Source of the DNA: an uncultured Planctomycetota bacterium
Lineage (GTDB): Bacteria; Planctomycetota; Planctomycetia; Isosphaerales; Isosphaeraceae
Reading direction: 5' to 3'
Length of the DNA stretch: 64,000 nucleotides
Assembly: GCA_963845755.1 (NCBI GenBank)
Contig: CAWJTV010000020.1
Location: forward strand, 672,001 to 736,000
Program-made: the position numbers and the translations under genes
In this document: positions 6,883-32,615 of the stretch, one piece after another
Numbering within the stretch: the first letter of the stretch is position 1
Layout of the letters: each line of letters starts with the position of its first letter
The notes under the pieces: generated by a model
What the model was told of the DNA's origin: nothing
Databases searched by the model: none
What the model saw: only the letters and a program-made list of their open reading frames with translations

Positions 6883-6936
6883 TTTCCTGCGTTTGACTTC
6901 ATAACCTACTCTGCCGTCTCACCGAGAGGCCCATCC

Positions 6937-7548
6937 ATGCTGAGTCAGAGTATCCACTCGAAATTGAGTCGAGTCCGCAAGCCGCGCGTCCATATTACCT
7001 ACGACGTCGAGACCGAAGGCGCCGTGGTCCAGAAAGAACTGCCATTCGTGGTCGGCGTCATCGGCGACTTCACCGGGAAGCCTGCCGAGCCCCTGCCGTC
7101 GCTGAAGGATCGGAAGTTCGTCCAGATCGATCGCGACAACTTCGACGAAGTCATGGCCCGCATGCGGCCCGCGCTGACCTTGAAAGTCGACAACACGCTC
7201 CAGGGGGACGGGACCGAGATGCTGGTCGAGCTCCAGTTCCGGTCGATCGAGGACTTCGAGCCGGGCGCCATCGCGGCGCAAATCCCCGCGATCAAGTCGC
7301 TGCTCGAGGTGCGGAATCGCCTGCGCGACTTGCTGAGCAAGGCCGACCGTTCGGAGGAGCTCGAGAACCTGCTCGAGCGGGTCTTGCAGCACGAGGGCGA
7401 CCTCAAGGAACTGGCGGCCGACCTCGATCACAAGAACGGACAAACCACCGACGGGGCGGCGGCGGCACCGGCCGACGGGCCCGCCGGCGACGCGGGCGGA
7501 GCGGCATCGGGCGACACCAAGGGCAAGGGCGGCAAGAAGGGAGCGTGA
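6937..7548 (+). CDS. tssB: T6SS sheath small subunit TssB
   Basis: [18 protein letters not shown]...[12 protein letters not shown]...[12 protein letters not shown]. Confidence 0.97.
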
Positions 7549-7551
7549 CAC

Positions 7552-9042: not shown

Positions 9043-9178
9043 TCCTCGGCGCGGCCGGTGGATTGGTTCGCAGTCCCCGGCCGCGCGGTCCGACAGCCGA
9101 GCAACATCGTGAGATCGAACATCGTGAGATCGAACCCTGCCGACGATGGCCAACATGATCCCGGGGTGAAGTGCCTCC

Positions 9179-10745: not shown

Positions 10746-10800
10746 CCGCGAGGGAACGTGCTGGCCGGGATGATCCCGTAAACTGCAATGAGGCCCGATC

Positions 10801-11304
10801 GTGAGACGAAGACCACACCCACAGCCCGCGGGGTTGCCCATGCTCGATCGCATGATCGACGAGGATCCCGCCGCCAAGGCCGAGGCACCGGCGCTGTCCG
10901 CCTGGGATCAGCAGACGATCGATCGGGCCATCCGGGAGGCGATCGGCCGGGATCTCGAGATCTTGCTCAACACACGGCAGCGGCTGATTCCATCGCCGCC
11001 GGGCGTGCTCGGACCGACCCGATCGATCATCGATTTCGGATTGCCGTCGGCGCGGGGCACGAACCTGGCGACTGCGGCGGGGCGCAAGGAGTTCGGCCAG
11101 GCGATCGAAGCGGCGATCCGTTGTTTCGAGCCGCGGATCCGGGACGTGCAGGTGACCGTGGAAGCCTCCGTCACACCCCGGGATCCCTTGAAGCTCCTGA
11201 TCGCGGCTCGGCTCGCTTCGGATCCGGACGGCGAGCCGTGGCAACTCGAGGCATCCTGGTCCGCCGGCTCGGGGCGAGTCCGGGTCGAGGAGGTCCGCTC
11301 ATGA
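10801..11304 (+). CDS. tssE: T6SS baseplate TssE (gp25-like)
   Basis: MLDRMID, RDLEILLNTR, SIIDFGLP, IRCFEPRI. Confidence 0.9.
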   Translation: MRRRPHPQPAGLPMLDRMIDEDPAAKAEAPALSAWDQQTIDRAIREAIGRDLEILLNTRQRLIPSPPGVLGPTRSIIDFGLPSARGTNLATAAGRKEFGQAIEAAIRCFEPRIRDVQVTVEASVTPRDPLKLLIAARLASDPDGEPWQLEASWSAGSGRVRVEEVRS

Positions 11305-13141
11305 GCGATGCCCTCCTGGGCTATTACATGCGCGAGCTCGGCATACCTCCGAGAGCAGGGCGTCGATTTCGCCCGACAGTACCCCAAGATCGCCGGCCGC
11401 CTCCGGCTCGGACCGGACCAGTCTGACGATCCGATGGTGGCGCGCCTGGTCGAGTCGATCGCGTTCTTGAACGCCCGAATCCGCCACAAACTCGACGACG
11501 ATTTCCCCGAGATCGCCGAGGCGATGCTCAACGTCCTCTATCCCCATTACTTGCGGCCGGTGCCGACGATGGCCATCGTGCAGTGCACCGTCGACCCGGC
11601 GCAGGGCGGCCTGACCGGCGGCTATACGATCCCGCGCGGGACGATGATCGAGAGCGAGCCGATCGATGGCGAGTCCTGCCGCTTCCGCACCGGCTACCCG
11701 CTGACACTCTGGCCGATCGAGCTCGTCAACGCGCAACTGGTCGGCCGTCCGTTCAAGGCCGCGTACTCGCCGCCGACGAATGCCGGCTGGCTGCTCGATA
11801 TTCACCTGGAGTGCACGACGCCGAAGCAGACGTTCGAAGCCCTCGCGCCCGGCACACTCCGGTTCTTCTTGCTAGGTAAGGCGCAGTACGTGTACGAGCT
11901 GTACGAGGCCCTGTTCGTGAATGTGAAGGACGTGGCCCTGGCGGCCTCGCTCTCCGACACGAATGCGCAGCCAATGGGCAGCGGGTGTCTCCGGCAGGTG
12001 GGCTTCGCGGCCGATGAGGCGATGCTGCCGTATTCCCCGCGGTCCTTCGGCGGCTATCGATTGCTCACCGAGTTCTTCGCGTTCCCGTCGAAGTTTTTGT
12101 TTTTCGACGTCGAGGGCCTCGACGCTCGGGCCTTGCGTGGTGTCGGTTCGTCGCTGCACATCCTGTTCTACTTCGACCGGCTCCCCCGCGGCCTGGAACC
12201 GTCGTTCGTGACTGCCAGCTCGTTTCAGCTCGGCTGCGTCCCGGTGGTAAACCTGTATCGCAAACGGGCCGAACCGGTGCAGTTGACCCAGACACAGACG
12301 GAGGTCCGGGTGAACCCGGACGTCCGGCGGCCGCTCGCCCATGAGGTTTACTCGATCGATCGCGTCACGGCCACGTCGCCGGTCGGGGCGGTGGTCGAGT
12401 ATCAGCCGTTCTACGAACTGAAGGCGCCCCTCCGGACGCCCGAGGAGCAGTCGTATTACTACGCCGCGCGCCGGACACCGCCCCCATCAGACGTACATCG
12501 GGACCCTGGGACTGAGGTCTACTTGACTCTGGTCGATCGCGAGGTGCGGCCGACGGCCCCCGCCGATGAGACGCTGCACGTCGAAACGACCTGCCTCAAT
12601 CGCGACCTCCCGTCCCGACTGCCCTTCGGCGTCGGTCGCCCTCGGCTCCAGCTTACGATCGCTGCGCCGGTGGCTCGCGTCATCTGCTTGACCCCGCCGA
12701 CTCCGACATTGCGACCGCCCCTGGGCCGGGGTGTCCTCTGGCCCTTGATCTCGCATCTGACCTTGAATCACCTCTCGATCTCCGACGCCGAGGATGGGGC
12801 CGCGGCCCTGAGGGCCATCCTGCTGCTTTACGACTTCGCCGACTCGATCGATACTCGCAAGATGATCGAGGGTCTGGTCTCGGTCACGAGCCGGCGCGTG
12901 GTGGGTCGAGCCAATGTCGGCGGGCCAGACGGGGATCGTACGCGGCGTCGAAGTGACCATGGAATTCGACGAGGATCAGTTCACCGGCCATGGATTATTC
13001 ATCCTGGCCAGCGTCCTGGAGCGGTTCCTCGGGCTGTACTGTTCGATCAATTCGTTCACGAAGCTGGTCGCGACCACGCGCCAGCGGGACGGAGAGCTGA
13101 AGCGATGGCCGCCCAGGGCCGGCGAGATGATCCTCCTCTGA
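11301..13141 (+). CDS. tssF: T6SS baseplate TssF (frameshifts near 11340 and 12925)
   Basis: FARQYPKIAGRL, DPMVARLVESIAFL, LYPHYLRPVP, GYRLLTEFFAFPSKFLF, VLERFLGLYCSINSF, WPPRAGE. Confidence 0.93.
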
Positions 13142-14201
13142 TCGAACGGCTCCTGAAGGAGCCGGGGTGTTTCGAGTTCTTCCAGGCGGTCCGCCTGTTG
13201 GAGCGGATGGAGCCCGGCGCGGGCGTGTCGGCGAGGACACACTTCCCGGCCGCGAGGTGGTCATGTTTCGCGCGGCCCCGACCATTCGATTCCCAGCGTC
13301 CGAGATCCTGTCAATCCGCCGGCCTCGCGAGGAACCGATCGAACCATCCTCTTCCTCGTCGCCCTACGACATGATCGTCACCTTCATGGGTCTGACGGGT
13401 CCCAAGGGCGTGCTCCCCGCATATTTCACGCGCCTGCTCCTCCGGCGACTGCGGGCCAAGGACCCGACCCTGCGCGATTTCTTCGACGGCTTGAACCACC
13501 GACGGGTCTCGCTGTTCTATCGCGCCTGGGCGAAATACCGCTTCCCGATCGCGTTCGAGCGGGCGAGACGCCAGGAGATCACGAACGACGATTCCTTTAC
13601 GCGCTGTCTATTCTCGCTGGTCGGCCTGGGCACAGCCGGCCAGCGGGATCGGCACGAGCAGGACGACCATACGTTCATCTACTACGGGGGGCTCTTCGCA
13701 CATCGTCCGCGATCGGCCGTCGCGCTGGAGGGGATCCTGGGCTTCCAGTTCGGGCTGCCCGTCCGGATCGAACAGTTCCAGGGTCAGTGGTTGAACCTCC
13801 CGCGGGCAGACCGTTCGATGTTACCGAGTCGGCGCGAGCCCGGCGGCCGATACAACCACCAGGGCCAGGATGTCGTGCTGGGGCAACGAGCCTGGAACAT
13901 CGAGAGCAAGTTCCGAATCCGCCTGGGTCCGCTGGGTCTGACGGAGTTTTATCGATTCCTCCCGCCCCCCATCGGCGACTGCCTGAACGATCTCGTCGAG
14001 CTCACGCGCACGTACGTCGGCGCGGAGTTCGACTTTGACGTCCAGCTCGTGCTCTCGAGCGGTGAGTGGCCGCGGTGCGAACTGGGCGGCCGGGAGAGGC
14101 AAATGGCCTATCTCGGTTGGAATGTCTGGCTCAGCTCGGGTACGTTCGCCGCGGAGAACGGCGATGCCCTCTTCTCCGGGCAATCGGCCAGAGGGTCTTG
14201 A
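13105..14201 (+). CDS. tssG: T6SS baseplate TssG (frameshift near 13220)
   Basis: FEFFQAVRLLE, FMGLTGPKGVLP, DFFDGLNHRRVSLFYRAWAKYR, KFRIRLGPL, LGWNVWL. Confidence 0.92.
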
Positions 14202-14282
14202 TTAGTCGATAGCTCCGACGGCATGCGGTCGGTCCGCTACAGCCGGAAGGGCAGTTCAACAGAAGCGAGGCGAGACTATCCC

Positions 14283-14808
14283 ATGGGTGCTTATTTGATG
14301 CTCGGCGGCACGGCCGCTTCCCCGACGATCGTGGGTGGAGTCACCGAGTCGACCCATCCGCAGTGGATCCAGATCAATTCCTGGTCGATCAGCGCGGCGC
14401 GGCCCGTGGTTTCCGACCAGGGCTCGGAGGAGTCGCGACACCGCGGCGAATCGCAGGTCGGTGAGATCTCGATCTCGAAGGTGATCGACAAGGCGAGTGT
14501 CTACATCCTCCAGAATCTGCTCCAGGGCAACTCGATCGACAACGCCCAGATCGACATGACCACGACTGAAGGCGACAAGGCAGTCAAGGTTTACTTCACG
14601 CTCAAGATGACGAACGTTCGCATCACGAATCACTCGCTATCGGGTGCCGGTGACGAGGGGTGCGCTGGCTTCGGAGAGTTTCAGCCTGAACCCGACCTCC
14701 GTGACGTGGACCTATAACGAGAAAGTTCCGACCGATGACAAGGATACTCCGCACACGGTTGGTTACAACGTGGACGCGGTCACGGTCGGCGGCGAGGGAG
14801 GGAAGTAA
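14283..14808 (+). CDS. hcp: T6SS tube protein Hcp (frameshift near 14660)
   Basis: HPQWIQINSWSISA, ISISKVIDKAS, LKMTNVRITNHS; the other frame continues ESFSLNPTSVTWTY...VGYNV. Confidence 0.9.
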
Positions 14809-15003
14809 TCGGATCGGCCGCCTGCCCGGATCGATTCGGCCGACCGGGCGGGCGGAACGTTGCTGGGTCGGTTCCTCCCGCGCCGGCCTGGCCGATGTCG
14901 GTTACACCGTTTTCCCTGCACGGACCAGCCCACTCGGACGGAGACTCGCCTTCCCGGTGCGGCGCCGAACGTGTGCGCTCCGGACGCCTAGGGACACGAT
15001 ACC

Positions 15004-16970
15004 ATGCCCCCGGTCAACGACCTCTTCTCCGTCACGACGCCGATCGATGACAGCGGGGCGTTCTCCCTGATCTCGCTCGAAGGCGCGGAAGGGATCTCGC
15101 GGTTGTTCCATTTTCGCCTCGAGCTGGTCTCGTCGAATCTCGCGGTCGCGGCGAGTGACCTGGTCGGCAAGGGGATTACCTTCTCGATCGCCCAAGGGCA
15201 GGGGGGAGACCGCTATTTCCACGGGATCGTCCGCCATCTCGCCGTCGGCGGCCTGCTCGACTCCGCCCGGACCTACATCGTCGAACTTGTGCCCTGGCTC
15301 TGGTTCCTCACGCGTACGGCCAATTGCTGCATCTTCCAGAACCTGTCCACGGTCAACATCGTGGAGAAGATCTTCGGAGACCTGGGCTTCTCGGACTACC
15401 AATCGAAGCTCACCGCGACGTATCCCAAGCGGGTCTACTGCGTCCAGTATCGCGAGTCGGCGTTCCAGTTCATCTCGCGGCTCCTCGAGGAGGAGGGGAT
15501 TTACTACTACTTCAGCCATGCGGATGGCAAACATACGATGATCCTCGCCGATGACGCTTCCGGCTATGTGACGTGCCCGGAATCGAGCGTGGTTTACATC
15601 CCCATCGAGCCGCGCGAACAGCCGAGCGATCGGATCATGGGCTGGCAGCATACGCTACGAGTACCGTTCGGGGAAGTTCACGCTGACGGATTACAACTTC
15701 GAGCAACCGACAAACAACCTGCTCTCGACGACCTCGACCACCGTCTCGCTCCCGAACATCGCGTCCTACGAGGTCTTCGATTACCCGGGGATCTATCTGG
15801 ACACTGCTCGTGGCTCGACCCTGGCCGGTCTCCGCGTCGGGGCCGACGAGTCGGCGTATGAAGTTGTCCGGGCTCGGAGCACTTATCGCACCTTCACACC
15901 CGGGGGGAAGTTCACCGTCACGCGCCACTCCGATCAGTCCGAGGTGAACCAATCCTTCGTCATCTCGTCGATCAATCACTCCGGCTCAGGTCGTGAGATC
16001 TACCAGAACAGCTTCGAGGCGATCCCCGCCGCTGTCGTGTTCCGACCCGAGGCCCTCACGCCCAGGCCGATGATCCGGGGCACCCAGACGGCCGTCGTCG
16101 TCGGATCCTCGGGCGAGGAGATCTGGCCGGACAAGTACGGCCGGATCAAGGTCCAGTTCTACTGGGACCGACTGGGGACGAACGACGAGAACAGCTCCTG
16201 CTGGATCCGCTGCGCCCAGTCGTGGACCGGGAGTACCTGGGGCGTGCTGTTCATCCCGCGGATCGGCCAGGAAGTGGTCGTCAGCTTCCTGGAGGGGAAT
16301 CCGGATCAGCCCCTCATCATCGGCGTCGTCCCCAACGCCAACGAAATGCCCGCCTACGCGCTGCCCGACAACAAGACGCGCAGTTACATCAAGACCCGTT
16401 CGTCGAAACAGGGGGGCGATACGGAGTCCAACGAAATCCGGTTCGAAGACCTGAAGAGCTCCGAGGAGATCTACATCCACGCCCAGAAGGACCTCAACGG
16501 CGTCGTCGAGAATAATGAAACCTTGACCGTCGGCAGCAGTAACGCCGACGATGGTAGCCAGACGATCTCCATCTACAAGAACCGAACGATCACCGTACAG
16601 ACCGGCAACGAATCGACGACCATCAAGCAGGGCAATCGCACGATCGAGATCGACCAGGGCAACGAATCGACGACCATCAAGCAAGGCAATCGGACCGTCG
16701 AGATCGACCAGGGCAACGACACGCTGACGATCAAGCAGGGGAACCTGTCGATCCAGATGAATGCCGGGAGCGGGACGATCGAAGCGGCCCAGACGATCAC
16801 GCTGAAGGTCGGTTCGAACAGCATCGAGATCTCCCAGCAGGGGATCACGGTGAAGGGGGCGATGGTGTCCGTCCAGGGGCAGTCCCAGGTCCAGGTCCAG
16901 GCGCCGAACGTCCAGGTCTCCGCCGACGCCGGCGCTGGTCCTCAAGGGCGGCGTGGTGAATATCAACTGA
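15004..16970 (+). CDS. vgrG: T6SS spike VgrG without a C-terminal effector extension (frameshifted)
   Basis: EGISRLFHFRLEL, YCVQYRESAFQFISRLLEEEGIYYYF, DKYGRIKVQFYWDR, IPRIGQEVVVSFLEGNPDQP, gp5-like GNESTTIKQGNRT repeats, ends GGVVNIN. Confidence 0.95.
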
Positions 16971-17043
16971 CCAAGATAACGCCTTACATGCAGTCCGATG
17001 GTCCCTCCAGCACGACCCGGCCGCCCGGAAACCGAGCTCCGCG

Positions 17044-18475
17044 ATGAGATATCCACCTGTCCATTGGTATGAAGGTCTGTTCCTCCAACCGCACCACTTC
17101 CAGGCGGCGGATCGCAACCTGGCCGAGTTGATGCAAAGCTCGCTGGAGTTCCACCATCCCTACTATTACGGCATCCGCTCGTTGGAGTACGGCCCGGAGG
17201 CGCTGGCAAATCACCAGTTCGAGGTCCGTTCGCTGCGGGCCCGCATGCGCGATGGAACGATCATCGACCTGGGTCCCGGCCAGCAGCTCGATCGGCTCGA
17301 CCTGAAGCGCGCCTTCGAGATCCAGACCAAGGTTCTCATCTACCTGGGTGTGCCGATCGCCCAGTTGGGGATGGAGAACGTGGCGATCGATGGGCAGCGA
17401 GCGCGGGAACATCCCGCGGTTCCGGCAGCAGTTGCGGATGCTCCAGGAGGAGACGCGCGGGGGCAACGACCAGGAGGTCAAATTCAAGGCGCTGAATCTT
17501 CGCCTCTTGCTCTCGACGCAGGACACCAGCGGTTTCGATCTTCTGCCGCTGGTGCAGATCGAGCGAGCCGGGGAACATGGAGCCATGCCCCGGCTGGACG
17601 TGACTTATATCCCGCCTGTCCTGGCCCTCGACGCCTGGCCGGGACTGGGCCGCGACATCGTTCGGGCGATCTCCGACATCCTCGATAAACGGATTGAGAC
17701 GCTCGGCCAGCAAGTGGCCAACCGTGGGATCTCGTTCGATAGCCACGAACCGGGCGACCTGGAGCGATTGCTCCTGCTCGGCCAGCTCCACGATTCCTCC
17801 GCCCTCCTGTCGGTCCTGACCGTCGCGCGCGGCGTCCATCCGTTCGTCGCCTACTGCGAGCTGGCCCGGATCGTCGGCAAGCTCGCGATCTTTGGCAAGG
17901 ATCGCGCCCTCCCCAAGATTCCCCCCTACGATCACGACGACCTGGGCACGATCTTCCGGGAGATGATGCGGCTGATCGATTCGCAGATCAATGCGGTGCG
18001 GGACTACCAGTACGAGCAACGGTACTTCCTCGGCGTCGGACTGGGGATGCAGGTCGCGCTGGAGGCGCGGTGGTTCCACGCCGACTGGGAGTGGTTCGTG
18101 GGTGTCCACAAGAGCGACATCACCGAGGAAGAATGCCAGAAGCTCCTCTCCTCGGGACAGCTCGACTGGAAACTCGGCAGCAGTCGTCAGGTCGAGAACC
18201 TGTACGCCCGAGGCGCCGAGGGGATCAACCTCGTCACACTCCCGCGCCCACCGAGGACCCTGCCCGTCAGCCACGACTGGATCTACTTCGAGGTGAGCCG
18301 CTTGAACCAGGCCTGGCGGGACGTCCAGGAGACCCAGACCCTGGCGATGCGGTTCCGGGAATCGCTCATCCTCAACCTCGATCGCCTCCAGGGCGAGCGT
18401 CAAATTGTCGTGTCGTATAGCGGTCGGCAGATCACGCTGGAATTCGCCCTGTTCGCCGTGCCGAACCTCGCTTGA
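17044..18475 (+). CDS. tssK: T6SS TssK (frameshift near 17400)
   Basis: VHWYEGLFLQPHHFQ, YIPPVL, HPFVAYCELARIVG, PPYDHDDLG, C-terminal LEFALFAV. Confidence 0.92.
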
Positions 18476-18494
18476 GTGGCCGGGCTTTGGATCT

Positions 18495-20067
18495 TCAGGC
18501 CCTCCACATCACGAACACGATCGCCAGGCCGATGAGGACAAGCCCGGCCACGCCGAAGTTTCCCAGGGTGGTCAGACGACGGTAGGCCGTTTCCTGCCGG
18601 ATCGCCTCGGGCGTCCAGGCGACGAAATTCTGGGCGTCGAGCAGGAGTTGGAGCACGCCGCCGACGAAACCTTGTTCGCGCTTGGCATCTCGGCCGGTGC
18701 CTGCCACGAAACAGCCGCCGAGCATCACCTGGCCCCGCGTGTCCAAAGCGACCAACCGTCCGATCAGCCGCCCGAGCCGCCGTGTGCGGCCGTGCATCTC
18801 CGCGAAGAAGCGAAAGAGATGGGAATTGTCGCGGACGCTTTCGAGCAGACCGTCATCGTGGGTGTTGAAACGGATCAGCCGGTAGAACAACGGCATGAAC
18901 AAGGCATGACCGATCCAATCCGCCCCGGATTCCATCTTCTGGACACGCTCGGAGATTTGCAGGTCGGGGACCAGCGGAAACGTTCGTCCCATGGCTTGCA
19001 ACCGCTGCTCCTCGGAGAACTCCTGAAGAAGGCGGTCGAAATGGGGTGCTGTTTCGAGGTCGCACATCAGGGCGAACACGGGGCAGTTGACCAGGATCGC
19101 CTCGCGAATGACCGTCAGATCGAGATGGCAGGCTGTCCCGGCCTGGCGCGCCTCGGCCTCGGAATCCGTCGAGGAATAAGGGATCGCAAGCAGGATTCCA
19201 TTGATCGGACAATAGGGCCGGCGGTCGCGGAGCATCAACTTGCAGAGATGTTTGAGCTTCCGCGTGAGCATTTCGACCTCCGCGGTCTGGCTGAGCAGGA
19301 TGTCGATCGATCGTTTCTTGGCCGTCCGCTGGGCCGGCAACCCGACGGCTACTCGGGCCGGCTCGGCTTCGACGACCGTCGTGGCGGCAATCTGGGTCCC
19401 GGCAGCGTCGGTCGGTGCGACCTCCGGCCGGCTCCGCGATGATGTCCCAGCCTCTGGTGGCGATTCCTCGGTCGCGGGATGAGGGGAAGGAGCGTCCGGC
19501 GAGGTGGCACTCGTCTCGGACGCCCCGGTTCGGGAGGCCACGAGATGTCCCGAGCGCAGAGAGCCCCGGACACGTCACGAAGATCGCTTCATAGGTGGCG
19601 AACACATGGATCGGGGCATCGGGACGGCGCGGGACGTCCGAGACGGCCAGCGCCACTCCGGACGCGTGGAACAAGCCTTGACCGCCACCCACCGGATCGC
19701 CCAGCACCAGGAAGACCGGCAGGTCCTTCAGCTCGACCGCTGCGCGCTGCATCGCCAGCCGGGCTTCGCGCCAGGCCCGATCGATCTCGTAAAAGTCGGA
19801 TGAATCGCCTTCCGCCGCCCAGAGCCTCCAGAGTTTCCCGATCAACCAGGCATTGAGGCACAGGAGCAAGAACAAGAGCGGTAGCCAGAGGTTCCGAATC
19901 GTCGGCGAGTTGAACGCCACGAAGTGATCCAGCCCCAGCCAGGAATTGAGGACCGCCAGCCCGATCGAGATCGCCAGCAGGGCGAGAAGGGCGAGGATTG
20001 TGCGGAGGGGCCCGGGGACCTTGACGGCTGCCACGATGGCGCCGCCCAACTTCTTGAAGAATTTCAT
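18495..20067 (-). CDS. tssM: Short TssM/IcmF-like protein: two N-terminal TMs, cytoplasmic ImcF-N domain, third TM, then stop (frameshift near 19530)
   Basis: LPVFLVLGDPVGG (degenerate Walker A position), RRPYCPINGILLAIP, CPVFALMCDLETAPHF, LGGCFVAGTG; ends GVAGLVLIGLAIVFVMWRA*. Lies directly downstream of tssL. Confidence 0.75.
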
Positions 20068-20076
20068 GGGCTGCCC

Positions 20077-20694
20077 TCATTCACCCAGTCGCGTCATGAC
20101 GAAAAGAATCACGAGCGGGATGACCAGCAGGGCGACGATGCCCAGACTCCTGGCCATCCGGGAGTAACGCCCTCGGGCCGACAACGGGGGCACATGGATG
20201 TGCGGCTCCCGACTGGGCGGGTTCTTCCAGACACGACCCAGCTCGACGTCGATCAGGCGGCGAGCGGCCTCGGTCCATTGGGTCAGCCGAGCCGGATCAT
20301 CGGCGACCTCACCCCGGAAGCCCAGTGCCAGGCACAGCAAGAAGACTTCGACGAGCGCGACATCCCCCTCGGCGAGCGCCCGCCTTGCTTTCTCCCAGAA
20401 CCGGGTCGCCCGCTCGTTGCTTCGAAAAAGCTGGAATTCGAGCTTCGTCTCGTTCCAGCGCTGACGCCAGGGCGAATGGAGGATGAAGAACTCGTCCAGC
20501 CAGCAAGTCAAAGCGTAGCGGACCTCGTCCTCCTTCGCGAAGCTGGTGCGGCTGCCGGCTGTGGGCGTCAACAGTCTCTCGAGCTCGGCGCGGGATCGCT
20601 CCAGGGAGACATCTTCGCCACGGTCGAGGCGCTCCTTGATTTTGAGGGTATAAGCGATGACGGGATGGGCGAGCTTGGCGACTTCGTCCTGCAT
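20077..20694 (-). CDS. tssL: T6SS TssL/DotU (no OmpA domain)
   Basis: VRYALTCWLDEF, WNETKLEFQLF, EVFLLCLALGFRG, C-terminal TM. Confidence 0.9.
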   Translation of the reverse strand: MQDEVAKLAHPVIAYTLKIKERLDRGEDVSLERSRAELERLLTPTAGSRTSFAKEDEVRYALTCWLDEFFILHSPWRQRWNETKLEFQLFRSNERATRFWEKARRALAEGDVALVEVFLLCLALGFRGEVADDPARLTQWTEAARRLIDVELGRVWKNPPSREPHIHVPPLSARGRYSRMARSLGIVALLVIPLVILFVMTRLGE

Positions 20695-20855
20695 CTCACC
20701 AGCCCTCGAGGACCGCTCTCCCCACTCGAATCGACCCGACCGCGCCAGACTCGACCGGAGCCGTCCGATCGACCGATTGTGTCACAATACCGTGCCGTTT
20801 AGAATGGTCCACTGGGGACGCGACGATCATTTCCGGAAACCGGCGGGAGGGCCCG

Positions 20856-21739
20856 ATGCTGAACCCTAACGATTCTTCCTGGTTCGGCAAGGCCCTGCTG
20901 GCCATGCTCGATGACCAGCGGCACACGGCGGCCTCGGAGCTGTTCATCTCATCGATTCGAGCCTTCGGCCGGAATGAGCCGATCGTTTCCAGCGGCGAGC
21001 CCGGCAAGGAAATGTTCGTCATTTGCCGGGGACGAGTCCAGCTCTTTTACGAGAACAATCTCGGTGAGAAGGTCGTCGTGAAGGAGATCGGTGTCGGCGA
21101 ACAGTTCGGCGAGATCGCCCTCATCGACGGCGAGTCCCAGCCCTTCACCGCCACCGCCCTCGACGACACGGAAGTCCTCGTCTTGAGTCGCGACGACCTC
21201 AAGGAGCTCTTGAGCCGTTATCCCCACCTCGCGATTGGTCTGCTGACGGAGATCTCCAGGTGGCTGCGGCGCATCGCCAAGAAACTTCGCGAGCAGTCGT
21301 CCAGGGCCGTTGACGACTCCCTGAAGAAGAACCGATCGTTTGCGGGTCATCTGGCGGACATTCGCGCGCGGCTCATCGGATCGCCGTCGGCCATCCTGGT
21401 CTTCAGCGTCGTCATCGGTGCCTGGATGTACCTCGGCCAGTTCGGGATGCAGGGCCTGTTCGGATTCTTTCCGTTCGATCCCTATCCCTTCACCTCGCTC
21501 CATCTGGTGCTCGCCGTCATCGCGGCGATCCAGGTCCCGATCATCCTGATGGTCCTCAACCGGCTGTCCGCGCGCGAGCGCGCAAATCCGACCTCGACGC
21601 CGAAGCCGACGCACGGCTCGAGATCGAGATGAACCGGCTCCAATCGAAGGTCGATCGGAATTACGAAGAAATCCGCAAGCAACTGGCGAAGATGGAGGCA
21701 TCGCGCGGAAGCGACCCGGCCTCGCGACTCTCGGCCTGA
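20856..21739 (+). CDS. cNMP-binding domain plus DUF1003 membrane protein (frameshift near the 3' end)
   Basis: GEPGKEMFVICRGRV, GEQFGEIALIDG; FDPYPFTSLHLVLAVIAAIQVPIILM. Confidence 0.85.
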
Positions 21740-21778: not shown

Positions 21779-24700
21779 TCACTGATAGAACAGTTCGACC
21801 TCGGCCTTCGTGGTGACGTCGGCCTTGACCTCGACCTCCAGCCGGCCGGTCCGCTTCGAAGTCGACTTATAACTGGCGACGAGGTACTTGCCCACGGGCA
21901 CGTCCGTGAAACCGAAGATGCCGTCATTGTCCGTCTTGGTCTCGAGCTTCTCGCCTTTCGCATTAACCAGGACGACGTCAAGCCCCGCCTGGGGTAGCTC
22001 TCCTTCGCGGACCCGTCCTCGGATCGATCCGGTGAGAATCGGATCCGTATCGATGAGCTCGATGCGGCCGGTGTCGAAGGTGCTCAGTCCCACGTTGCTG
22101 ACGAACTGGACGGAGACATCGATCGGCCCCTTGGACTCGGCGGGTAGGGGAAGCGTCGCGGACCACGTCTTCGCGTCAGAGGGCGACGGCAGGCCGGTCG
22201 CGGTCGCCCCGGCGGGGGGCAGCTTGCCGTCCGGCGCCGGCTTGCCCACGAAGAATGTGACTTCGCGGATCCCCGATGCCGGAACCTGTCCGGCGGCCCG
22301 GATCGCCAGGGGTGTGCCGCGCCTGGCCTGCTTCGGCAGCCGCGCCAACTTGACCCATCGCGGAGGTGCATCGTCGATGATGATCGGTTGCGATGCGGAC
22401 TCGACCCAGCGCCCCGCGGCGTCTCGGAGCTGGGCTCGTACCTCGTAGGTGCCATGGATCCCGGTGGTCGGGAATCCGACGCTCCAGTCCTGGAGACTCG
22501 CATCAACCCACGGCGAGCCGCCCGGGCCCGTCGGCAGGAAGCCAACCCGCCCGTGGCGCGGCCGGTCAAACTTTCGCGTGACCAGGGGCTCGAACGGGCC
22601 GTTATCCGCCCGCCCGAGGCTCAATTCGAGCGTTGCGTCGTCGGGCGCATTATCGACTTCGACCACGACCGCGAGCGTTTCGCCGCTCCGGACGGCCTTC
22701 GGCATGCGCAGCCCGACGACCGTCTCGATCGCCCGTTCAGCAATCGTCGGCCCTCCTTCGCTGCTGAATCGGACGTGGAACGTCTGGGCACGCGGAACGC
22801 CGTCGATGTTCAGCTCGACGGTTCCGATCCCGTCGATCCCTTCCTCGAATCGAATCGCCTCGGCGAACAGCGTCATCTCCTTCCCATCGGCTGGCAGCTC
22901 GCCCCGGAACAGTCCCGACTCGACCGAGAGGAAGCCGGGAATCCGGTCGGTGCGCCAGGACCAGCTCGACGGGGCAGGGGGGACCGACATCCATCGGCCT
23001 GGACCTGACCCGAACCGACAGGCGGTTCGGCTCGCCGACGGCGACGCGGGGCGGTGTGTAGAGGAGCTCGACGACCTGGATATAGTGCGTCACCGGCAGG
23101 ACCGCGGCCTCGAACACCTGTTCTCCGAGGATCACTCCAGGGCGATCGACATCCAGCACGCGGAACCGCGGTGAGCTCGTCGGCGAGGGCAGCACGCCCT
23201 GGGGGAGCGGACCGGGTGGGAAGGTCACCGGCTGAAGGGCGCCGGCCTCCACCGCCTGTTTCAGCGAGACCACGGGCGCGGAGGACTCGCCGGAGCGGAT
23301 CTCGACGACGATCGTTCGCGCTGATTTCGTCGGGTTCCACACCCGAACGGGCAACGGCCGCGGTGCCGTCCCTGGTCGGACCAGCAGCCGGCCGGGCGGC
23401 TCGCCGGGAGTCTGGCCCAACAGGACCCGAAAGAGTTCGGGGTCGGAGGGCATGGCGATCGGCAGCTTGCTCGTGAAGGTCCAGTCCCCAACTCGGTACT
23501 GTACCAGGCAGCCGGAGGCTTTCGGATCGAGGAATCGGCCCGATTCCGGCCGCTCGAACAAGACGGGCAATCTAAAATGGGGCGACTTCGGCGAGATCGG
23601 CTGCAAGGAGTAACTCCAGCCCGGTTGGTCGTGCGGCTCGGCCCGCTCCTTCGAGGTGCCCGAAATCGGGCCGAATCACTGGCGACTCGCGCGATGTCGC
23701 GAGGAATCGGAGGCCGATCGAACCGCTGCCTCCGTTCGAACTGAGCTGAAGATTCACGGTCGCCGATCGATCTCGTGACGTGAGTGTCAAGGATGACGGG
23801 TCCGTGGCCAGTCGAACCTCGGGGAGTGGCGAGTTGCGGCCCGGTGGGTTGTAACCGCGTCCGGCCTCGGCGTGGAACGCCAGGCCGTGGAGGTCGCGTG
23901 CTTCGTAGAGCATGCGGTCCGAGAGCCACGACCAGAGCGCCGTCCATTCGCGGACTTGCCGGGAGGAGACCGGGTCGTGGGACCCGCGGCCTAACATCGC
24001 GTGGCCGAACTCCAGCGGGACGACGCGAGCCCAGCTTTCCTCCCGGCGCGGCTCGATCGGATCCGGCGAGATCGCCTGGGGCTCCAACCACGCCCGATGG
24101 AGGTCCTGGCCGAGTTTCGGCCAGTCGACTTCTCCTTGCTCGACGTTGCGGGTCTCCCGCTCCAGTGCCTCGAGACGCCGGGAATCCTGCCCGCCCAGAT
24201 GGAGCAAACCGATCGTCCGGCGCGACCTGCGCCGCCGCTTCCTTCCCGATCGCCTGGCGCGGACCGGTCTCAGCCGGACCATGCTCCTGTCCGAGGGCCT
24301 GACGATCGGCATCCTCCGGCTCGGTGTCCAGAATGACCCCCTGGAGCCGGCGGTCCAGGTCCCTCCCCGCCGTCCAGAGCGCCTCGCGATCCTTCGCGGC
24401 CAGGAACGGAGTCGCCAGCACGGCATCGATTTGACGCGCAGTCTGTGCGTCCGATTGCCGCGATTGCGCCCGAGCGATCAGCTCCTTCACGGCCGTGACC
24501 GATGTCGATTGGCGCAACTGGGCGAGCTGCTCCTCCAGGGCTTCCATCCGGCTCCGGATCGGCGCGAACGGCGGCGAGCAGATCGGGAATCGCCGCGTCC
24601 TCGGTCGCTGCGCCCGCCCGGGGACTTGCGCCGTACAACTGCCGGTCGAGGTCGATCGTCTCGCGGATCGCCGACTCCCAGGTCGCATCGAGATGGCGGT

Positions 24701-26578
24701 TGGACTCGAGCACCGGAAGCGCCGAGGGCAGAAACGCCAGGGCTTCGTCCCGCAGATCCCACGAATGTTCGACGATTTCCTGGCACGTCGAGATTTCGGC
24801 GTAGAGCTCGGTGGCGCGCCTGAGCCGGGCATCGGCTTCATGAGCCGGCGCGAAGCCGGACGAGAAGAGGGCGATTTCACCCAGGTGACGCTCCCGTGCG
24901 GCCGTATCGAGCCAGGGACGGAGTAGTGAGAACGACCGCGGCCGGCTGTATGCCGGCTCTCCGAAGCGAGCCGCCTCGAGAGCCAGTCGAGCCGGATCGG
25001 CTAGCCACTCCGTGCCGGACTCTGCGGACCCCGCGCGATCGGCCAGCCGTCGCAATAGCAGCGTCTCAATATAGAGTGGATCCGACTGTCGCCCGCGCAG
25101 CAGTCCATCGTAGAAGACCAGATCGGCCGGAGTGGGGTGCACGACCATCGCGGCGGCGTGAAAGACGGCCCACGCCAGCGCGAATTCCGACGCGCCCGCT
25201 GTCGCCTTCTGAAACTCGGCGGCCTGCTTGGTTCTTGCCGCTGCGAGCTCCTCGGGTTTCTGACCCTGTCCCGGGTCGGCCCGATCCTGGAGCAGCTTGA
25301 CCATGGCCTGTGACACGCGTTCGTCGGGTTTCTCGCCAAGGGCCAAGGCCAGTGCGAGCGATCGCGGTATCGGATGCGGGGACGATCGAGCCGTCTCGAA
25401 CTCTCGGGTGGAGGAAGCGACCGCCCGCTCCAGCTCCGTGCGGACCCGATCGGGATCGACGCCGCCGCGCCAGCCGCGTTCGGCATCCATCAGGGCCGCC
25501 TCCAACCCTCGCAAGGCCCACGGCGCAACGCGAAGGGCATGCTCGCCCTGCCATCGATCGCGGCGCGCCCATCCCTCGATCAACCAGCTCGGATACACTC
25601 GATCCTCGGGAAGCGCCGGCCGCAACTCGAGCGCCCTCTTTCGCCGGGGAGCGATCGAAAAGTCGTCCCGAGAGCCGAGGAGCACGGGCGTCTGCCGGAC
25701 GCCTCGGCACGCGACGGCCCAGCGATTGACCCGGGGCACTACGTAATCAACCAGCTCGATCAGAGTGACGCGGCCATCGCGGTTGCCCGTAACTGGCTCG
25801 AGATCGGCCCAGCCGCTCAGCCCCTCCTCAGCGTAGGCCAGGAAGACGGATCGCCCCCAGACTTCCGACGCCCAGGAGACCTGGCCTGTGCCCGCCGCGC
25901 AGAGGACAGCCAGACGATCGGGGGGTATTACCTGGCTCGAACCAGCCAGCTCCGCTTCGATGCGGGCTGTTACATCGTCAACGAGCTGGCCGTGGAGCGG
26001 ATCGGCCATGGGCCGCATCACATCGAGCAAGAGCAAGACACGCTTGGCGGGACTCCGCGCAGCGCCCCAAGCACGTCGCGGAGCCGAATCCAACCGGCCA
26101 GTCCTTCGGCGCGACCGCCGGGCAAGACGAACACTTCGGCCGATTCCCCTGAGCCCGTCGAGCCAATCCCGACCCGCGCCGGCGAACAGAGCACCACTAC
26201 CAACGTCTCGTCCGACCGCAGACCGGCCATGGACTCGAGCGCGGCGCCGAGACGACCCGCGGTGATCGTCGGGTCGCCGGCCCCGATGGTGCGGGAGAAC
26301 CATCGTCCGGCCCGTAGACTGACGGCGTCCCCCGGCGCCTGGGCGGTCACGGACCCGGCTCCCCGATCGCCCGTGTCGAAAACCAGGGGTAACAGCACGG
26401 GGAACGGATGAGGCCGGAACCACGAGGCCACCCCCAACAGACATCCGAGTGCGATCCCAGCCGCGACGATCAGGCCCAACCACCTCGGCGGCGCCACCGC
26501 GCGATCGGAATCCGCGCCGACCAGCGAGGGCCTCGCGCGCCAGACCGGTTCGATCTCCCGTGCCGTGGATTCGCTCAT
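21779..26578 (-). CDS. Giant (~1600 aa) membrane-anchored protein: N-terminal TM, inactive caspase-like domain, helical region, beta-rich domains, C-terminal carboxypeptidase-regulatory-like domain (several frameshifts)
   Basis: Stitched from ORFs 26018-26590, 24270-26672, 23261-24880, 23572-24426, 22737-23606 and 21779-22990. Motifs KRVLLLLDV, AVLCAAGTGQVSW, SVFLAYAEEGLSGWAD...DGRVTLIELVDYV...QTP; C-terminal TGSIRGRV...TDNDGIFGFTDVPVGKY. Confidence 0.7.
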
Positions 26579-26602
26579 GGCGTCCACCATCCAGGGTGAG
26601 GC

Positions 26603-26992
26603 TCACGCGACGTTCGTCTTGACGGTTCCTGCCATCGTGATCGTGATCACGCCGGCCCAGGAACACAGACACTTGGACGTGCTATTGAGCGCCGGCATCT
26701 TGCCGATCATCACGGTTGGCGAACCGGGCGTCCACGGGGCGGGGATGACTGGAACGCACGGCATCGGCGTCAGAACGCCGAGCGCCGCCGCCGTCGCCGC
26801 CGCCACTTGCGGATTGGTGATCGAGCTGCACATCCCGAACGGCGGGATGTTCTGGATCGGCACGTTGTCCATGATATTGGCCGCGGGCATGTTTTCGGCG
26901 ATGGTCTTGTTCACGGGCGGAACGATCAGCTTTGACGGGGCCGCGCCGAAACTGCACGTCATCGTCGCATTCATCGCCACGAGTTGGGGCAT
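26603..26992 (-). CDS. DUF4280 PAAR-like spike-tip protein
   Basis: ATMTCSFGAAPSKL, NIPPFGMCSSITNPQVAAATAAALGVLTPMPCVP, WTPGSPTV, CLCSWAGVITIT. Confidence 0.93.
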   Translation of the reverse strand: MPQLVAMNATMTCSFGAAPSKLIVPPVNKTIAENMPAANIMDNVPIQNIPPFGMCSSITNPQVAAATAAALGVLTPMPCVPVIPAPWTPGSPTVMIGKMPALNSTSKCLCSWAGVITITMAGTVKTNVA

Positions 26993-27253: not shown

Positions 27254-30200
27254 ATGGCGGATGAAACGACGCTGGGGACTGTGGTCACCTGGAGGGTTGG
27301 GGGCAGCCCGCGAGGGATCGACCCCTCCGGACGATTCTGGCGCCGCGCGCCGTCGCATCGTCACGGCGAGGCGTCGCGGAACGGGCGTGCGGCGCGGATC
27401 GTGGCCGCTGCACTGGCCCTTTTCGTGGGCGTCGGGGCGTGCCTCTGGCTGATTTCCTTGCTGCGCCTGCCCCGACCGGCCCGGCTGGTCCTTGTCGGGG
27501 CCGGCTATGAGGCCAACCTGCAAATCCCTCACAATGCCTACGGTTGGCGCAGTCTGCAAGCCCTCAAGTCGTTGAGCGAACAGCCCGTCTCCTCCTGGAT
27601 GGCGAGGCTCTGTTCGGCTCGATACCAGCCGGCGGGCGAACCCAGCCTGCTCGACACCGGGCGCTCGAGCGATGGGGTCTCGTGCTAAAGGAACTCCCGG
27701 AGCCGACGATCGTCGTGGTCATGGCCCTGCACGGCGGGGTGGATGCTGAAGGTCCCTATCTGCTCCCACAGGATGCGAAGGCCGTTCCCGAGTCGCGAGA
27801 TCGGCTCCGAATGACCGACGTTTTGCGCGTCTTCAGTGGCCTGCCTCGATACAAGAAAAAGATCCTGATCCTCGACGCGACCGGACTTCCCTATCACTGG
27901 GAACTGGGCATGTTGCGGAACGATTTCGCCCGCGAGCTGAAAAAGCTCGATGCGGAGATCAAGAAGATCCACAACTTCGTGGTAGTCTGCGCGAGTGGTG
28001 AGGGTCAGCGCTCCTGGGTCAACGAGTCTGCGGGACGGACGGCCTTCCTTCATTTCTTGATCAGGGCTCTGAGCGGAACGGCCACTCGTGCGAGCGTGGG
28101 ATCGGCCTGGCCTCCGAGCAAGCGGGTGAACCTCGAGGAGGTTTTCGACGACGTCGCACGGGAGGTCAATAGCTGGGCGGCCATCCATTGTAACGCCGCT
28201 CAGGAGCCCTTCATCCTCCCCTCGGGGGACGACGGGAGGCGGCTGGCGCGTTCCATCGAGCTCCCTCCGGTCCGCCCTCTGGTCGATCCGGAAGCGCCGG
28301 TCGAAGATGAGCGGAGATCGATCGAGCAAGCCCTTGCGAGCCGCTGGGGTGCATTCCGCGATCTCGCGACATCGCCGGTTCCGATCGGCGTCGCGGACCC
28401 GATTGGGTGGCGGCACTACCAGAAGCTCCTGCGGCGCTACGACGAGTTGCTCCGCATCGTCGGCACGAGGGGCGAGGCCGAGTATGGCGAGGTTCTGGCG
28501 GAACTGAAGGCGAAACGGCTTCAGATCGCGGAGAGTCGGACGACGCCGCTGACGAAGGCACGGGCCGCGACGTTGACCGTTGCACTGGCGGAAGGGGTCA
28601 CCCATGCCGTTTCGCCGGCGGACGGGACCACGCCGACCCCTGGCCGGCCGCTCGACCCCGCGGCGCCCGACAAGGAGGTCCAGACCTGGTTCGACAAGGA
28701 GTGGTGGCCGGCCGCCGAGGACCAGGAGCAGATCATCTGGAAGACCCGCAAGAATCAGGAGCGGGACGGCGACGCGCGGGATCTGGCGGCGCAGCTCGGC
28801 GACCTGCTCCTGGGCAGGGCCATCGATAATCCGTCGGGAAACCTCGACCATGCCGCGCGACTCGCCAAGCGGCTCGATCTGCCGTCTCAGCGGCCGGCCG
28901 AGCTGAATCTCCTCATCATGCTCCAGCGCGCCCTGAACGAGTGGAAGAGCCCCGGCGATCCGGAGCTGATCCGCATGGCGCTGCGGGTCCGCCGCCTGGC
29001 CGAACGGGCAGCGCTCGGCTTGCCCGAACAGGCCGCCGCGCCGGACAAGGTGGTGGCCGGCACGTTGGTCGCGCCCTGGGTCCGCGACAAGGTCGACGAG
29101 GGTGACCGCCATCGCCGGCAGGCTGAGGACCTGCTCTTTGCCTCCGACCGTCGGGAACAGGCCAGAGTCGCCTACGCCGGCGCCGAGCGTGTCTATCGCG
29201 ACGCGATCGAGGCGGCCGAAACGGTCCGCCGGGCCGTCCTGGAGGCGCGAACGAGCCCAGTCCGACCTCGTCCCGATCACCGAGTGGCTCGCCACCTGGT
29301 ATCCTCCGCCAGACCAGGTCAACCTGATGGAGGCGTTCGTCGCGCGCACCGTGGATCTCTGGGAGAAGGTCCACGCCGTGAGCCGGATCCTGGAGACACC
29401 CAATCCCTCCAGGATCGGCCCAAATTCGACAGGCCCGAAAGGACCCGATGCCGACGTCGATACCGCTTCGAGGGAGGTCACTCAGGCACACGACCAGTTA
29501 AAGACGCAAATCGATGATATTCTGGGTTCCTGGATCTTGAGTACCGGCAGTCCATCGGTCACGCCCCAGTCCATCTTCGAGGTCCGGGCCCTCACCAATG
29601 CGCTGACCCTCCCATGGCTCGGCGAGAACGACGCAGCGCGATGCTCGAGCGCACACAATCGCAGCTCCACACCGGTGCTCAAGACGGCTCGGGGACGGGC
29701 GGCGGGGGATCGAACCGTGCATTCCCCGAGGACGACGGTCATACGGAGGATTCCCTCATCGGCTTCCGCCGCAGTCTCGCCGTGGCCATGCTGGGTACCC
29801 ACGCGGACGGCACAGAGCCGTCGGACTTGCCCGGGAGCCCGGCGGGCGATCCGGTTGAGGATGGCCGGAGGATCGGCAGGGGGTTGGCGAATCGCGTGGA
29901 GGCGATCGGAAGCCTGATCGGGAAACCGGATTCTCCAAGAGGACCCGAATGGGCGCACCAACTGGCTACTGCCGACCGCCTCGTCCGCATGCTGGACGGT
30001 GTCTCGATCGAGCAGCTCGATCGCAACTCGGGACTCGACGACGCGTTAAGCTCACTCCGCCTGCAAGACTACCTCGTGGAACAAGCCCGCCGCACGCGGC
30101 GAGATCTCTGGCACGACGAGGGCGACCAGGACGTGCCCTATGACCGTCGGGTCGCCGGGGCTTACCTCGACGACGCCGGGGCCATCGACCAGTCGTTGCA

Positions 30201-32501: not shown

Positions 32502-32615
32502 AGGGGGCTCGAGACTTCCGGTAGAGGATCGGGTTCGCTACAGTGCACGAGATGGCCGAACGCGACAGCCGCGAGTGAGCCGTGCTGTTCCCGCGATTCC
32601 ACCTCCATCGATGAG

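Follow-up and report, generated by a model that had tools for sequence, protein, structure and literature searches.

A type VI secretion system (T6SS) encoded in a 64-kb stretch of DNA from an uncultured member of the Planctomycetota has a membrane anchor that is reduced to an inner-membrane module. The stretch, hereafter the window, corresponds to G000:C20:672001-736000, in a genome (G000) of 14.27 Mb that was assembled into 49 contigs and is 87.9% complete. The module is composed of a tail-anchored TssL and a short TssM of about 523 residues, which comprises two N-terminal transmembrane (TM) helices, TM1 and TM2, a GTPase-fold domain and a third helix, TM3. Apart from TssJ and the periplasmic half of TssM, the T6SS has its full set of parts; this condition is conserved, and the parts that are retained lie on or in the inner membrane. 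The TssJ lipoprotein and the periplasmic domains of TssM are lacking from the genome and from its clade. In T6SSs of type i (T6SS-i), which are defined by 13 core components, TssJ-TssL-TssM is treated as the defining envelope-spanning part, and to our knowledge the TssM periplasmic domain together with TssJ makes the only known conduit. Because a short TssM without TssJ is common to many related planctomycetes, their T6SS must cross the envelope in a manner undescribed so far. Two giant proteins encoded in the window, here named A and B, are candidates for the periplasmic part. An original prediction, made from the sequence of the window, had proposed a shortened membrane complex and a non-canonical T6SS. 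This proposal is supported: neither of the findings that it had named as speaking against it, canonical parts encoded elsewhere or a full-length TssM in close relatives, was made.

The short TssM and the T6SS locus

The tssM gene is located on the reverse strand at 18495-20067, with its ATG at 20067 and its stop codon at 18495-18497, and starts 10 nucleotides downstream of the end of tssL. The motifs CPINGILLAIP, CPVFALMCD and LGGCFVAG, and the C-terminal end FVMWRA followed directly by the stop codon, are all present as first reported, and hydropathy gives two N-terminal TM helices and one C-terminal. TM3 corresponds to residues 337-355 of the 359-residue C-terminal piece, and only 4 residues follow it. 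There are 19 nucleotides between the stop codon of tssM and that of the convergent tssK, whose frame ends at 18475, so that, as the original prediction had stated, no room is left for a continuation of tssM. The only Pfam match of TssM is IcmF-related_N (PF14331, E 1.3e-13), with 51.4 bits against a cut-off of 25 and covering profile positions 6-171 of 259. On the TssM equivalog TIGR03348, the protein scored 28 bits over model positions 192-361 of 1168, under the curated whole-protein cut-off of 388. Of the features of TssM, the short form has the N-terminal pair of TM helices, the NTPase-fold domain on the cytoplasmic side that carries IcmF-related_N, and TM3. The periplasmic IcmF-related (PF06761) and IcmF_C (PF06744) domains are absent from it.

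The inner-membrane anchor TssL (DotU) is encoded on the reverse strand at 20077-20694 and has 205 amino acids. In agreement with the claim that TssL has no peptidoglycan-binding domain, DotU (PF09850, E 3.7e-20) is its sole Pfam domain, any other periplasmic domain being absent as well, and hydropathy places a C-terminal TM helix 4 residues from the protein end. Its score on TIGR03349, 63.3 bits, is under the cut-off of 89.95.

The gene that had been described as encoding about 520 residues does encode about 523 if read through, but it is not one open frame in the assembly, which the original prediction did not mention. The span 20067..18495 is 1573 nucleotides long, that is 3n+1, with about 170 N-terminal residues in one frame and about 350 C-terminal residues in another. 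When seven intact orthologues are aligned with it, the break falls in a variable linker directly after VTCPGLSALG, at about 19549-19552. Contigs from four soil-metagenome runs were aligned to positions 15000-21000 of the window, parts of these 6 kb being uncovered, and showed three single-letter differences, each of them a letter missing from the contig. The letter at 19552, which falls exactly on the tssM break, is absent in a contig of run X1 (227 nucleotides, 19526-19753, depth 3.4) that is otherwise identical. A second letter, at 15655, inside the zone where the two vgrG frames overlap, is absent in runs X1 and X2, and a third, at 16931 in the C-terminal part of vgrG, is absent in run X1. 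Dropping one letter at 19552 produces a frame of 1572 nucleotides, with 523 codons and a stop. As the short-read contig is without this letter, an insertion error of the assembly is the probable cause of the split, and the true product would have about 523 residues. We interpret the other breaks in the same way. Single-base frame breaks are pervasive in this genome and were seen in tssA, tssC2, vgrG, tssK, tssM, the genes of A and B, the adjoining kinase gene, and clpV, which is in three pieces. A split tssM was likewise seen in the low-completeness relatives G001, G008, G012 and G014. Breaks shared among such relatives fit a common sequencing method rather than biology, and they probably also depress the completeness estimates of the genomes affected.

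Profiles of IcmF_C, IcmF-related and TssJ (T6SS-SciN, PF12790), which matched an E. coli control in six-frame searches, had no six-frame match in the genome of the window. The genome has one IcmF-related_N locus and one TssC locus, and neither a full-length tssM nor a tssJ nor a stand-alone TssM periplasmic domain was found outside the window. IcmF_C and TssJ were each found in 0 of 61 related genomes, a set in which the genome of the window is counted and in which 35 of the 61 are at least 90% complete. TssJ is the outer-membrane lipoprotein among the T6SS-i core components, and no gene for it was found. Within the 64-kb window, TssJ, ClpV and a TagH-type FHA protein had no match, and in the whole genome no TagH-type FHA protein reached the cut-off. 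The claim that tssJ, fha and clpV are missing from the window is therefore correct for the window, but a true clpV (TssH) on the same contig had been missed. This gene (G000:C20:755009-757650, reverse strand) is located 62 kb from tssM, has no T6SS neighbours and is read in three frames. TIGR03345 is the best model for all three pieces, with 627.8, 524.2 and 100.7 bits, whereas the ClpB model scored 363 and 358 on two of them and did not match the third.

The remaining T6SS-i genes, which encode the sheath, the baseplate, Hcp, VgrG and TssA, are found together on the forward strand at 5682-18475. They are tssA (5682-6882, ImpA_N, two frames in the assembly), tssB (6883-7548, VipA), tssC1 (7549-9042, VipB and VipB_2), tssC2 (9170-10745, VipB and VipB_2, two frames), tssE (10792-11304, GPW_gp25), tssF (11305-13374, TssF), tssG (13131-14201, TssG), hcp (14223-14717, HCP), vgrG (14992-17047, Phage_GPD and Gp5, two frames) and tssK (17044-18475, PF05936), with Pfam E-values that range from 3.4e-15 (GPW_gp25/TssE) to 3e-183 (TssF). 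The tssK gene, convergent with tssM, is also split into two frames, 17044-17688 and 17306-18475, and the two pieces cover PF05936 positions 1-101 and 106-417, respectively. The parts needed for docking at the inner membrane, TssK and the cytoplasmic domains of TssL and TssM, are retained, as had been claimed.

Conservation and fold of the short TssM

With the C-terminal piece as query, a short-TssM homologue was found in 30 of the 61 related genomes. The intact frames are 490-611 residues long, and the match reaches the last residues of the query. Each of the seven aligned orthologues stops after TM3; five have their end within 2-5 residues of the window stop, and L035 and L036 have longer tails. 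In another 19 loci, 19 of 19, the protein likewise stops past the C-terminal TM helix, and its tail does not exceed about 60 residues. No full-length TssM was found when lengths were compared across the relatives. Five orthologues that were scanned with Pfam have IcmF-related_N alone; tssL precedes each of them, and tssK-tssL precedes four. The same short end is present in high-quality genomes, namely G021 (99% complete), G041 and G053 (single contigs) and G038.

The short form is not restricted to this set of relatives. A profile made from 15 short TssMs was compared with 1.84 billion representative sequences and matched 3917 proteins with a limit of E<=1e-3 and 1016 with one of E<=1e-30, and the best 150 of these matches are 418-633 residues long and match to the C-terminus. 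The family comprises at least 1016 clusters at 50% identity. Around one member, the best 120 clusters at 90% identity have 480-592 residues and PF14331 only, and they bear in their source records the names 'hypothetical protein', 'VasK' and 'type VI secretion system protein [Planctomycetia bacterium]'. When longer relatives of the short TssM were sought, none was found, which is weak evidence. In a sample of 201 Planctomycetota genomes, evenly drawn across the phylum, TssC was found in 45. The six TssC-positive genomes that belong to the class of the window (G000, G038, G059, G175, G226 and G237) coincide with the six genomes that match the short TssM strongly, and none of them has IcmF_C. This domain was found in 12 of the 201 genomes, 8 of them over the cut-off and all from other classes; of its 13 matches, 9 are in frames of 1017-1321 residues and 4 weaker ones in frames of 333-492 residues. 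The short TssM is very likely a native, conserved form. We take the locus as a whole for the normal, intact T6SS of its planctomycete class, not for a decayed one, and the explanation built on this, in which lineage-specific proteins would cross the envelope, is somewhat favoured.

The AlphaFold model of the TssM orthologue from G021, made from 36 aligned sequences, has a predicted local distance difference test score (pLDDT) of 82.7 and a predicted template modelling score (pTM) of 0.75. It consists of an N-terminal helix, a TM hairpin formed of segments 32-57 and 69-97, an α/β domain (126-498) that is broken by a disordered linker (200-263), and a terminal helix (501-537) that corresponds to TM3. 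In a structure search with this model, the best 50 matches were all small P-loop GTPases, with Z-scores of 8.9-10.6 and root mean square deviations (RMSD) of 3.0-3.9 Å over 150-185 residues. Examples are 8yl2_A (Z 10.6, RMSD 3.5 Å over 168 residues) and 2q3f_B (Z 10.2, RMSD 3.2 Å over 160 residues). Foldseek gave no match to the short TssM model at E<=0.001, and a sequence search of the PDB with the short-TssM profile returned nothing relevant.

TssM-like proteins of other Planctomycetota classes are much longer, with 1400-1740 residues. They match IcmF-related_N with 179-229 bits and have an intact Walker A motif, and about 1000 further C-terminal residues match no Pfam family, IcmF_C included. 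Examples are found at L054:5509-10011, L058:3180-7928 and L056:4593-9572. These long planctomycete TssMs are a third, undescribed TssM architecture. Aligned with hhalign, the long TssM and the short family match with a probability of 99.3 and an E-value of 8.8e-21, and residues 104-470 of the long form correspond to 104-531 of the short one, from before the P-loop through TM3. At the Walker A site, the long TssM has GEPGSGKT, while the window has LGDPVGGGQG and the short family has the consensus LGxPxxxE. The alignment pairs GEPGSGKT with GSPIGTEE and LDTAG with LTCPG, so that the short form has lost the Walker A lysine and the aspartate of DxxG, and its sequence departs from GxxGxGK[ST]. Given this alignment, the short TssM consists of the TM and cytoplasmic half alone, and nucleotide binding by it is very improbable. 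Some canonical TssMs are also without a Walker A motif.

A TssC tree of 33 rows places the genomes with an IcmF_C-type TssM in one clade (100/100), while the short and the long forms of TssM are interleaved in the other clade (100/100), where the short form needs at least three changes. Reference T6SS subtypes were not part of this tree, and the tandem tssC paralogues could blur it.

Two giant proteins encoded with the short TssM

Protein A (21782-26602, reverse strand) has about 1600 residues and is spread over about four frames in the assembly, and protein B (27254-32369, forward strand) has about 1700 residues in several frames. Both were located by tblastn with intact orthologues, to which they are 31-41% identical, A being in the range of 37-41%. 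In G021 and G033, A is an intact protein of about 1625 residues encoded by a convergent gene next to tssM. B, with about 1700 residues and a VWA motif, is encoded beyond A in these two genomes and directly after tssM in G041.

In protein A, a cytoplasmic tail that bears a Trp-Arg (W-R) motif is followed by a single TM helix and a domain similar to caspases, and then by a helical region, β domains and, at the C-terminus, a CarboxypepD_reg domain. In protein B, which bears two W-R motifs in its tail, the single TM helix is followed by a caspase-like domain and a stalk of helices of about 480 residues, and then by a β-sandwich, a VWA domain and further β domains. A single N-terminal TM helix that follows an arginine-rich tail was found in 21 of the A/B-type frames screened, and one, L046:686-5614, shows none. 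By the positive-inside rule, about 1600 residues of A and of B should be located in the periplasm. The two proteins share a homologous N-terminal module of about 350 residues with a weak similarity to caspases (NF047832, E 2.6e-5; PF00656, E 0.023). When the consensus sequences were inspected by eye, B was seen to keep H-G and to have S-A-S-D for the Cys strand, and A to have the Cys and no H-G. The catalytic His-Cys dyad appears to be incomplete in both proteins, and the domain is here called a pseudo-caspase.

Residues 503-1701 of B were modelled with a pLDDT of 88.8. The model begins with about 480 residues of long helices, followed by the β-sandwich, the VWA domain and further β domains. 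In a structure search with this model, the VWA domain aligned with a Z-score of 20.8 and an RMSD of 2.1-2.2 Å over 171-180 residues, and the best Foldseek matches were pilus-tip adhesins, ArnB, integrins and ITIH1. The window piece of B also matches VWA_2 in Pfam (E 1.6e-5). B has the VWA fold with residues of the metal ion-dependent adhesion site (MIDAS; DxSxS...T...D). In 10 orthologues, the MIDAS-type residues D1149, S1151, M1154, D1267, G1268 and D1270 are invariant, and G1152, S1153 and T1266 are nearly so. In the ESM Atlas, B had no usable match, and the matches of A, to CarboxypepD_reg/Fn3 and caspase clusters, were no more than leads below 0.9.

The W-R dipeptide is present in 1-3 copies in 20 of 21 A/B cytoplasmic tails, directly before the TM helix. 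Its density is 2.2 per 100 residues in the tails versus 0.20 in the remainder of the proteins, which is about 11-fold. In the window, the sites are PVWRARP in A (26500-26602) and VTWRVGG and RFWRRAP in B (27254-27400), and W-R tails were also seen in orthologues such as those of L040, L044 and L093-L095. The dipeptide may be a docking motif. A complex predicted for TssM, TssL and residues 3-110 of A, which hold its tail and TM helix, scored 0.03 versus a mark of 0.32 and counts neither way.

The two proteins are distributed with the short TssM. B is present in 26 of the 61 related genomes, 25 of which have a short TssM, the exception being G017, which is fragmented and TssC-positive. A is present in 24 of the 61, of which 22 have a short TssM, and both exceptions, G006 and G017, are fragmented. 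Among the 31 genomes without a short TssM, B is found in one and A in two. A match to A or B is located less than 5 kb from tssM in 13 genomes (G000, G001, G008, G010, G011, G012, G013, G014, G021, G032, G033, G041 and G051), and next to the second tssM loci of G021, G033 and G041 there are separate A/B-like genes. The order in G175 is tssM, a B-like gene and a kinase gene. In G237, genes for single-TM proteins of 1612 and 1658 residues, which the A/B profiles missed, flank tssM, and the second matches VWA_2 (E 4.8e-5). In the phylum sample, B-like matches were found in four of the six short-TssM genomes, together with two weak matches to the caspase region only. None was found in genomes with a long or canonical TssM, a result that is confounded by phylogeny as the short form occurs in one class only.

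Two other relations between these proteins and TssM were considered and rejected. The C-terminal part of about 1000 residues of the long TssM could have been a fused A/B-like module, a link of the Rosetta-stone type, but there were no matches with hidden Markov models and the hhalign probability was at most 2.9%. B could also have been a hidden TssM periplasmic domain, but TssM was not among the top 50 of either structure search with the B model, which were filled by VWA domains, so that the stalk was barely probed.

Possible modes of crossing the envelope

On the cytoplasmic side, the TssEFGK-VgrG baseplate would dock on the faces of TssL and TssM via TssK, as in the canonical T6SS-i. As the baseplate is recruited via TssK by the cytoplasmic faces of TssL and TssM, a recruitment to which the abstracts of two studies of T6SS-i refer (PMC4604203, PMC6517824), anchoring at the inner membrane only is possible. 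Assembly and contraction could then proceed from the inner-membrane anchor alone, and ClpV would recycle the sheath. Gene linkage suggests that the envelope-crossing part would be supplied by lineage-specific proteins. The best candidates are A and B, whose stalk and distal β and VWA modules could reach the cell wall or the outer membrane, and we tentatively assign the periplasmic part to them. In the fullest form of this proposal, to which we give a probability of about one in three, the pseudo-GTPase stub of TssM and TssL form a dock, and A and B, two paralogous pseudo-caspase giants recruited through W-R, replace the TssM pillars and TssJ and span the wide periplasm by stalks that are tipped with VWA and transthyretin-like modules. 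The system presumably fires, some part of it would cross the periplasm, and its design may be tied to the enlarged periplasm of planctomycetes, as was originally suggested.

Several observations weigh against this proposal. At a completeness of 87.9%, this genome taken by itself does not prove that the organism is without these parts. The coverage is one contig of low depth per site (3.4 at the tssM break), and run X1 is maybe the sample of origin; the tssK break showed no difference in the aligned contigs, which leave parts of the 6 kb uncovered. The TssM-positive genomes G005, G018, G024 and G025 have no match to A or B, G226 has none within 16 kb of tssM, and in G038 a B-A pair is 420 kb away from it. 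The linkage of A and B is with the whole T6SS locus, and the related genomes are not independent samples. Furthermore, the distal part of B resembles the VWA modules of adhesins and sensors, not a channel, and A and B are unlike the C-terminal extension of the long planctomycete TssMs.

A serious rival, though in our estimate a less likely one, is that there is no dedicated trans-periplasmic structure. The anchor would be confined to the inner membrane, the spike would pass the cell wall and the outer membrane unaided, and A, B and the kinase encoded next to B would be a sensor or regulator of firing of the PpkA type. In the H1-T6SS of Pseudomonas, the kinase PpkA has a VWA domain in the periplasm. 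B has at the end of its stalk a VWA domain with invariant MIDAS-type residues. A kinase gene comes directly after B in the window and in G175, and one of 22 B homologues, P0283 (2038 residues), is fused to Pkinase domains, which is more in keeping with signalling than with a structural role. In addition, kinase and phosphatase regulators are among the accessory factors of T6SS in a recent review (PMC13584744). Against such a role, no TagH-type FHA target reached the cut-off in the genome, A is without a VWA domain, and two paralogous giants of about 1650 residues with long helical stalks far exceed the known sensors; A/B-like genes, moreover, abut tssM itself in many genomes. A Pkinase domain is absent from the B of the window and from the three B orthologues scanned (L044, L040 and L048), so that kinase and periplasmic VWA are not on one polypeptide here.

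It is improbable that a canonical TssM periplasmic domain or TssJ, or both, are present and were missed, either in the 12% that is unassembled or by being too divergent for Pfam. TssJ is small and divergent, and the TssMs of 1400-1740 residues have C-terminal halves that are invisible to Pfam, so that undetectable periplasmic domains do exist. However, IcmF_C and TssJ are missing from all 61 related genomes, closed ones included, the stop of tssM is 19 nucleotides from tssK here and falls right after TM3 in every relative, and A and B have no profile similarity to the long TssM extension. Still less credible is decay, in which tssM would be truncated and frameshifted, other genes broken, and nothing would work. 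The genes read in more than one frame (tssA, tssC2, vgrG, tssK, tssM, A, B, the kinase and clpV) would agree with it. We rejected this explanation on the short-read contigs, which lack one letter at three sites in 6 kb, two of them exactly at the vgrG and tssM breaks; on the same short end of TssM across the clade, including the high-quality genomes; and on the gene pieces, which keep a coding-type GC content at third codon positions of 0.73-0.90. The same type of break in four low-completeness relatives fits a shared sequencing method.

Comparison with known systems clarifies what is retained. T6SS-iii of Bacteroidota and T6SS-iv of Amoebophilus are contractile injectors without a TssJ-TssM channel, with other or no envelope proteins, and they are also without TssL and TssM. 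Unlike them, the system of the window still has TssL and, of TssM, the half that comprises the TM helices and the cytoplasmic domain. The long-TssM T6SSs of other Planctomycetota classes belong to the same TssC clade, and the N-terminal half of the long TssM is a homologue of the short one, but the long form keeps GxxGSGKT and DTAG and has about 1000 residues past TM3 that resemble neither IcmF_C nor A and B. With the canonical system of enteroaggregative E. coli Sci-1 (PMC6517824, PMC3213119), the window system shares TssA, B, C, E, F, G, K, Hcp, VgrG, ClpV and TssL (DotU); in TssM, the common parts are the two N-terminal TM helices, the NTPase-fold domain in the cytoplasm (PF14331) and TM3. 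Unlike in Sci-1, TssM ends 4 residues past TM3, there is no periplasmic helical domain, IcmF_C or TssJ, and Walker A is degenerate. The T6SS of Acinetobacter is likewise a T6SS-i that works without TssJ, and it depends, at the membrane complex, on the lineage-specific accessory proteins TsmK, TslA and TagX (PMC10564176; PMC13584744). There, TssM retains a periplasmic portion that binds TslA (PMC13584744), whereas the TssM of the window is without this whole portion and the linked giants of about 1650 residues are unrelated. B resembles the PpkA-type threonine-phosphorylation regulators of T6SS, a kind of factor that the same review lists, in that it is predicted to be single-pass with a periplasmic VWA domain and is encoded beside a Ser/Thr kinase; unlike them, it has no kinase domain, it has a pseudo-caspase and a stalk of about 480 residues, and no TagH/Fha target was found.

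Full-text literature searches turned up no paper that deals with the architecture of planctomycete T6SS or with a TssM devoid of its periplasmic domain. Boedeker 2017 (PMC5394234) states, in the passages covered, that R. baltica carries many T6SS genes and nothing further. Among the membrane-complex helpers in the parts covered of the 2026 accessory-factor review (PMC13584744), TsmK, TslA, TagV and TagX, nothing resembles the present design. The locus is a T6SS-i variant that is common in its class and, as far as was searched, undescribed in print. A widespread family keeps all the cytoplasmic parts of the machine and has lost the conduit, which raises a testable question, namely how a contractile injector crosses a Gram-negative-type envelope without the known channel; A and B are named candidate genes for such tests, and cultured relatives are available. 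For annotation, the proteins of this family, of about 540 residues, should not be flagged as truncated TssM or pseudogenes, and a T6SS in these genomes should not be scored as incomplete over a missing TssJ.

Other genes surround those of A and B. A gene for a DUF4280 (PAAR-like spike-tip) protein (26606-26992, reverse strand; PF14107, E 1.2e-34) is located directly upstream of A and has no homologue in the other loci compared. The Ser/Thr kinase gene (32502-35046, forward strand, two frames), directly after B, encodes a protein with an FGE-sulfatase domain that is 59-64% identical to the orthologues of G032 and G029; the same order is found in G175 (L094:16928-19639). Between tssL and A, a gene on the opposite strand (20856-21632, forward) encodes a cNMP-binding and DUF1003 membrane protein, which was not seen at the same place in the relatives examined. 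Mobile elements abound between clpV and the T6SS locus, and downstream genes for WD40 and caspase/CHAT proteins, a large serine recombinase and transposases (IS66, IS1-like and DDE_Tnp_1) are found at 37484-39722 and 44003-46225 of the window and in L037 (C20:736001-756000).

The tandem paralogues tssC1 and tssC2 (7549-10745) form a pairing that recurs in many genomes of the planctomycete T6SS clade, including G059:C7, G226:C115, G237:C2, G087:C30, G157:C76 and G251:C8. This recurrence suggests a sheath made from two large-subunit paralogues. Beside a normal tssC, G041 has a frame of 599 residues (L031:4968-6764, reverse strand) that matches both VipA (TssB) and VipB (TssC), and its product is possibly a fused sheath subunit.

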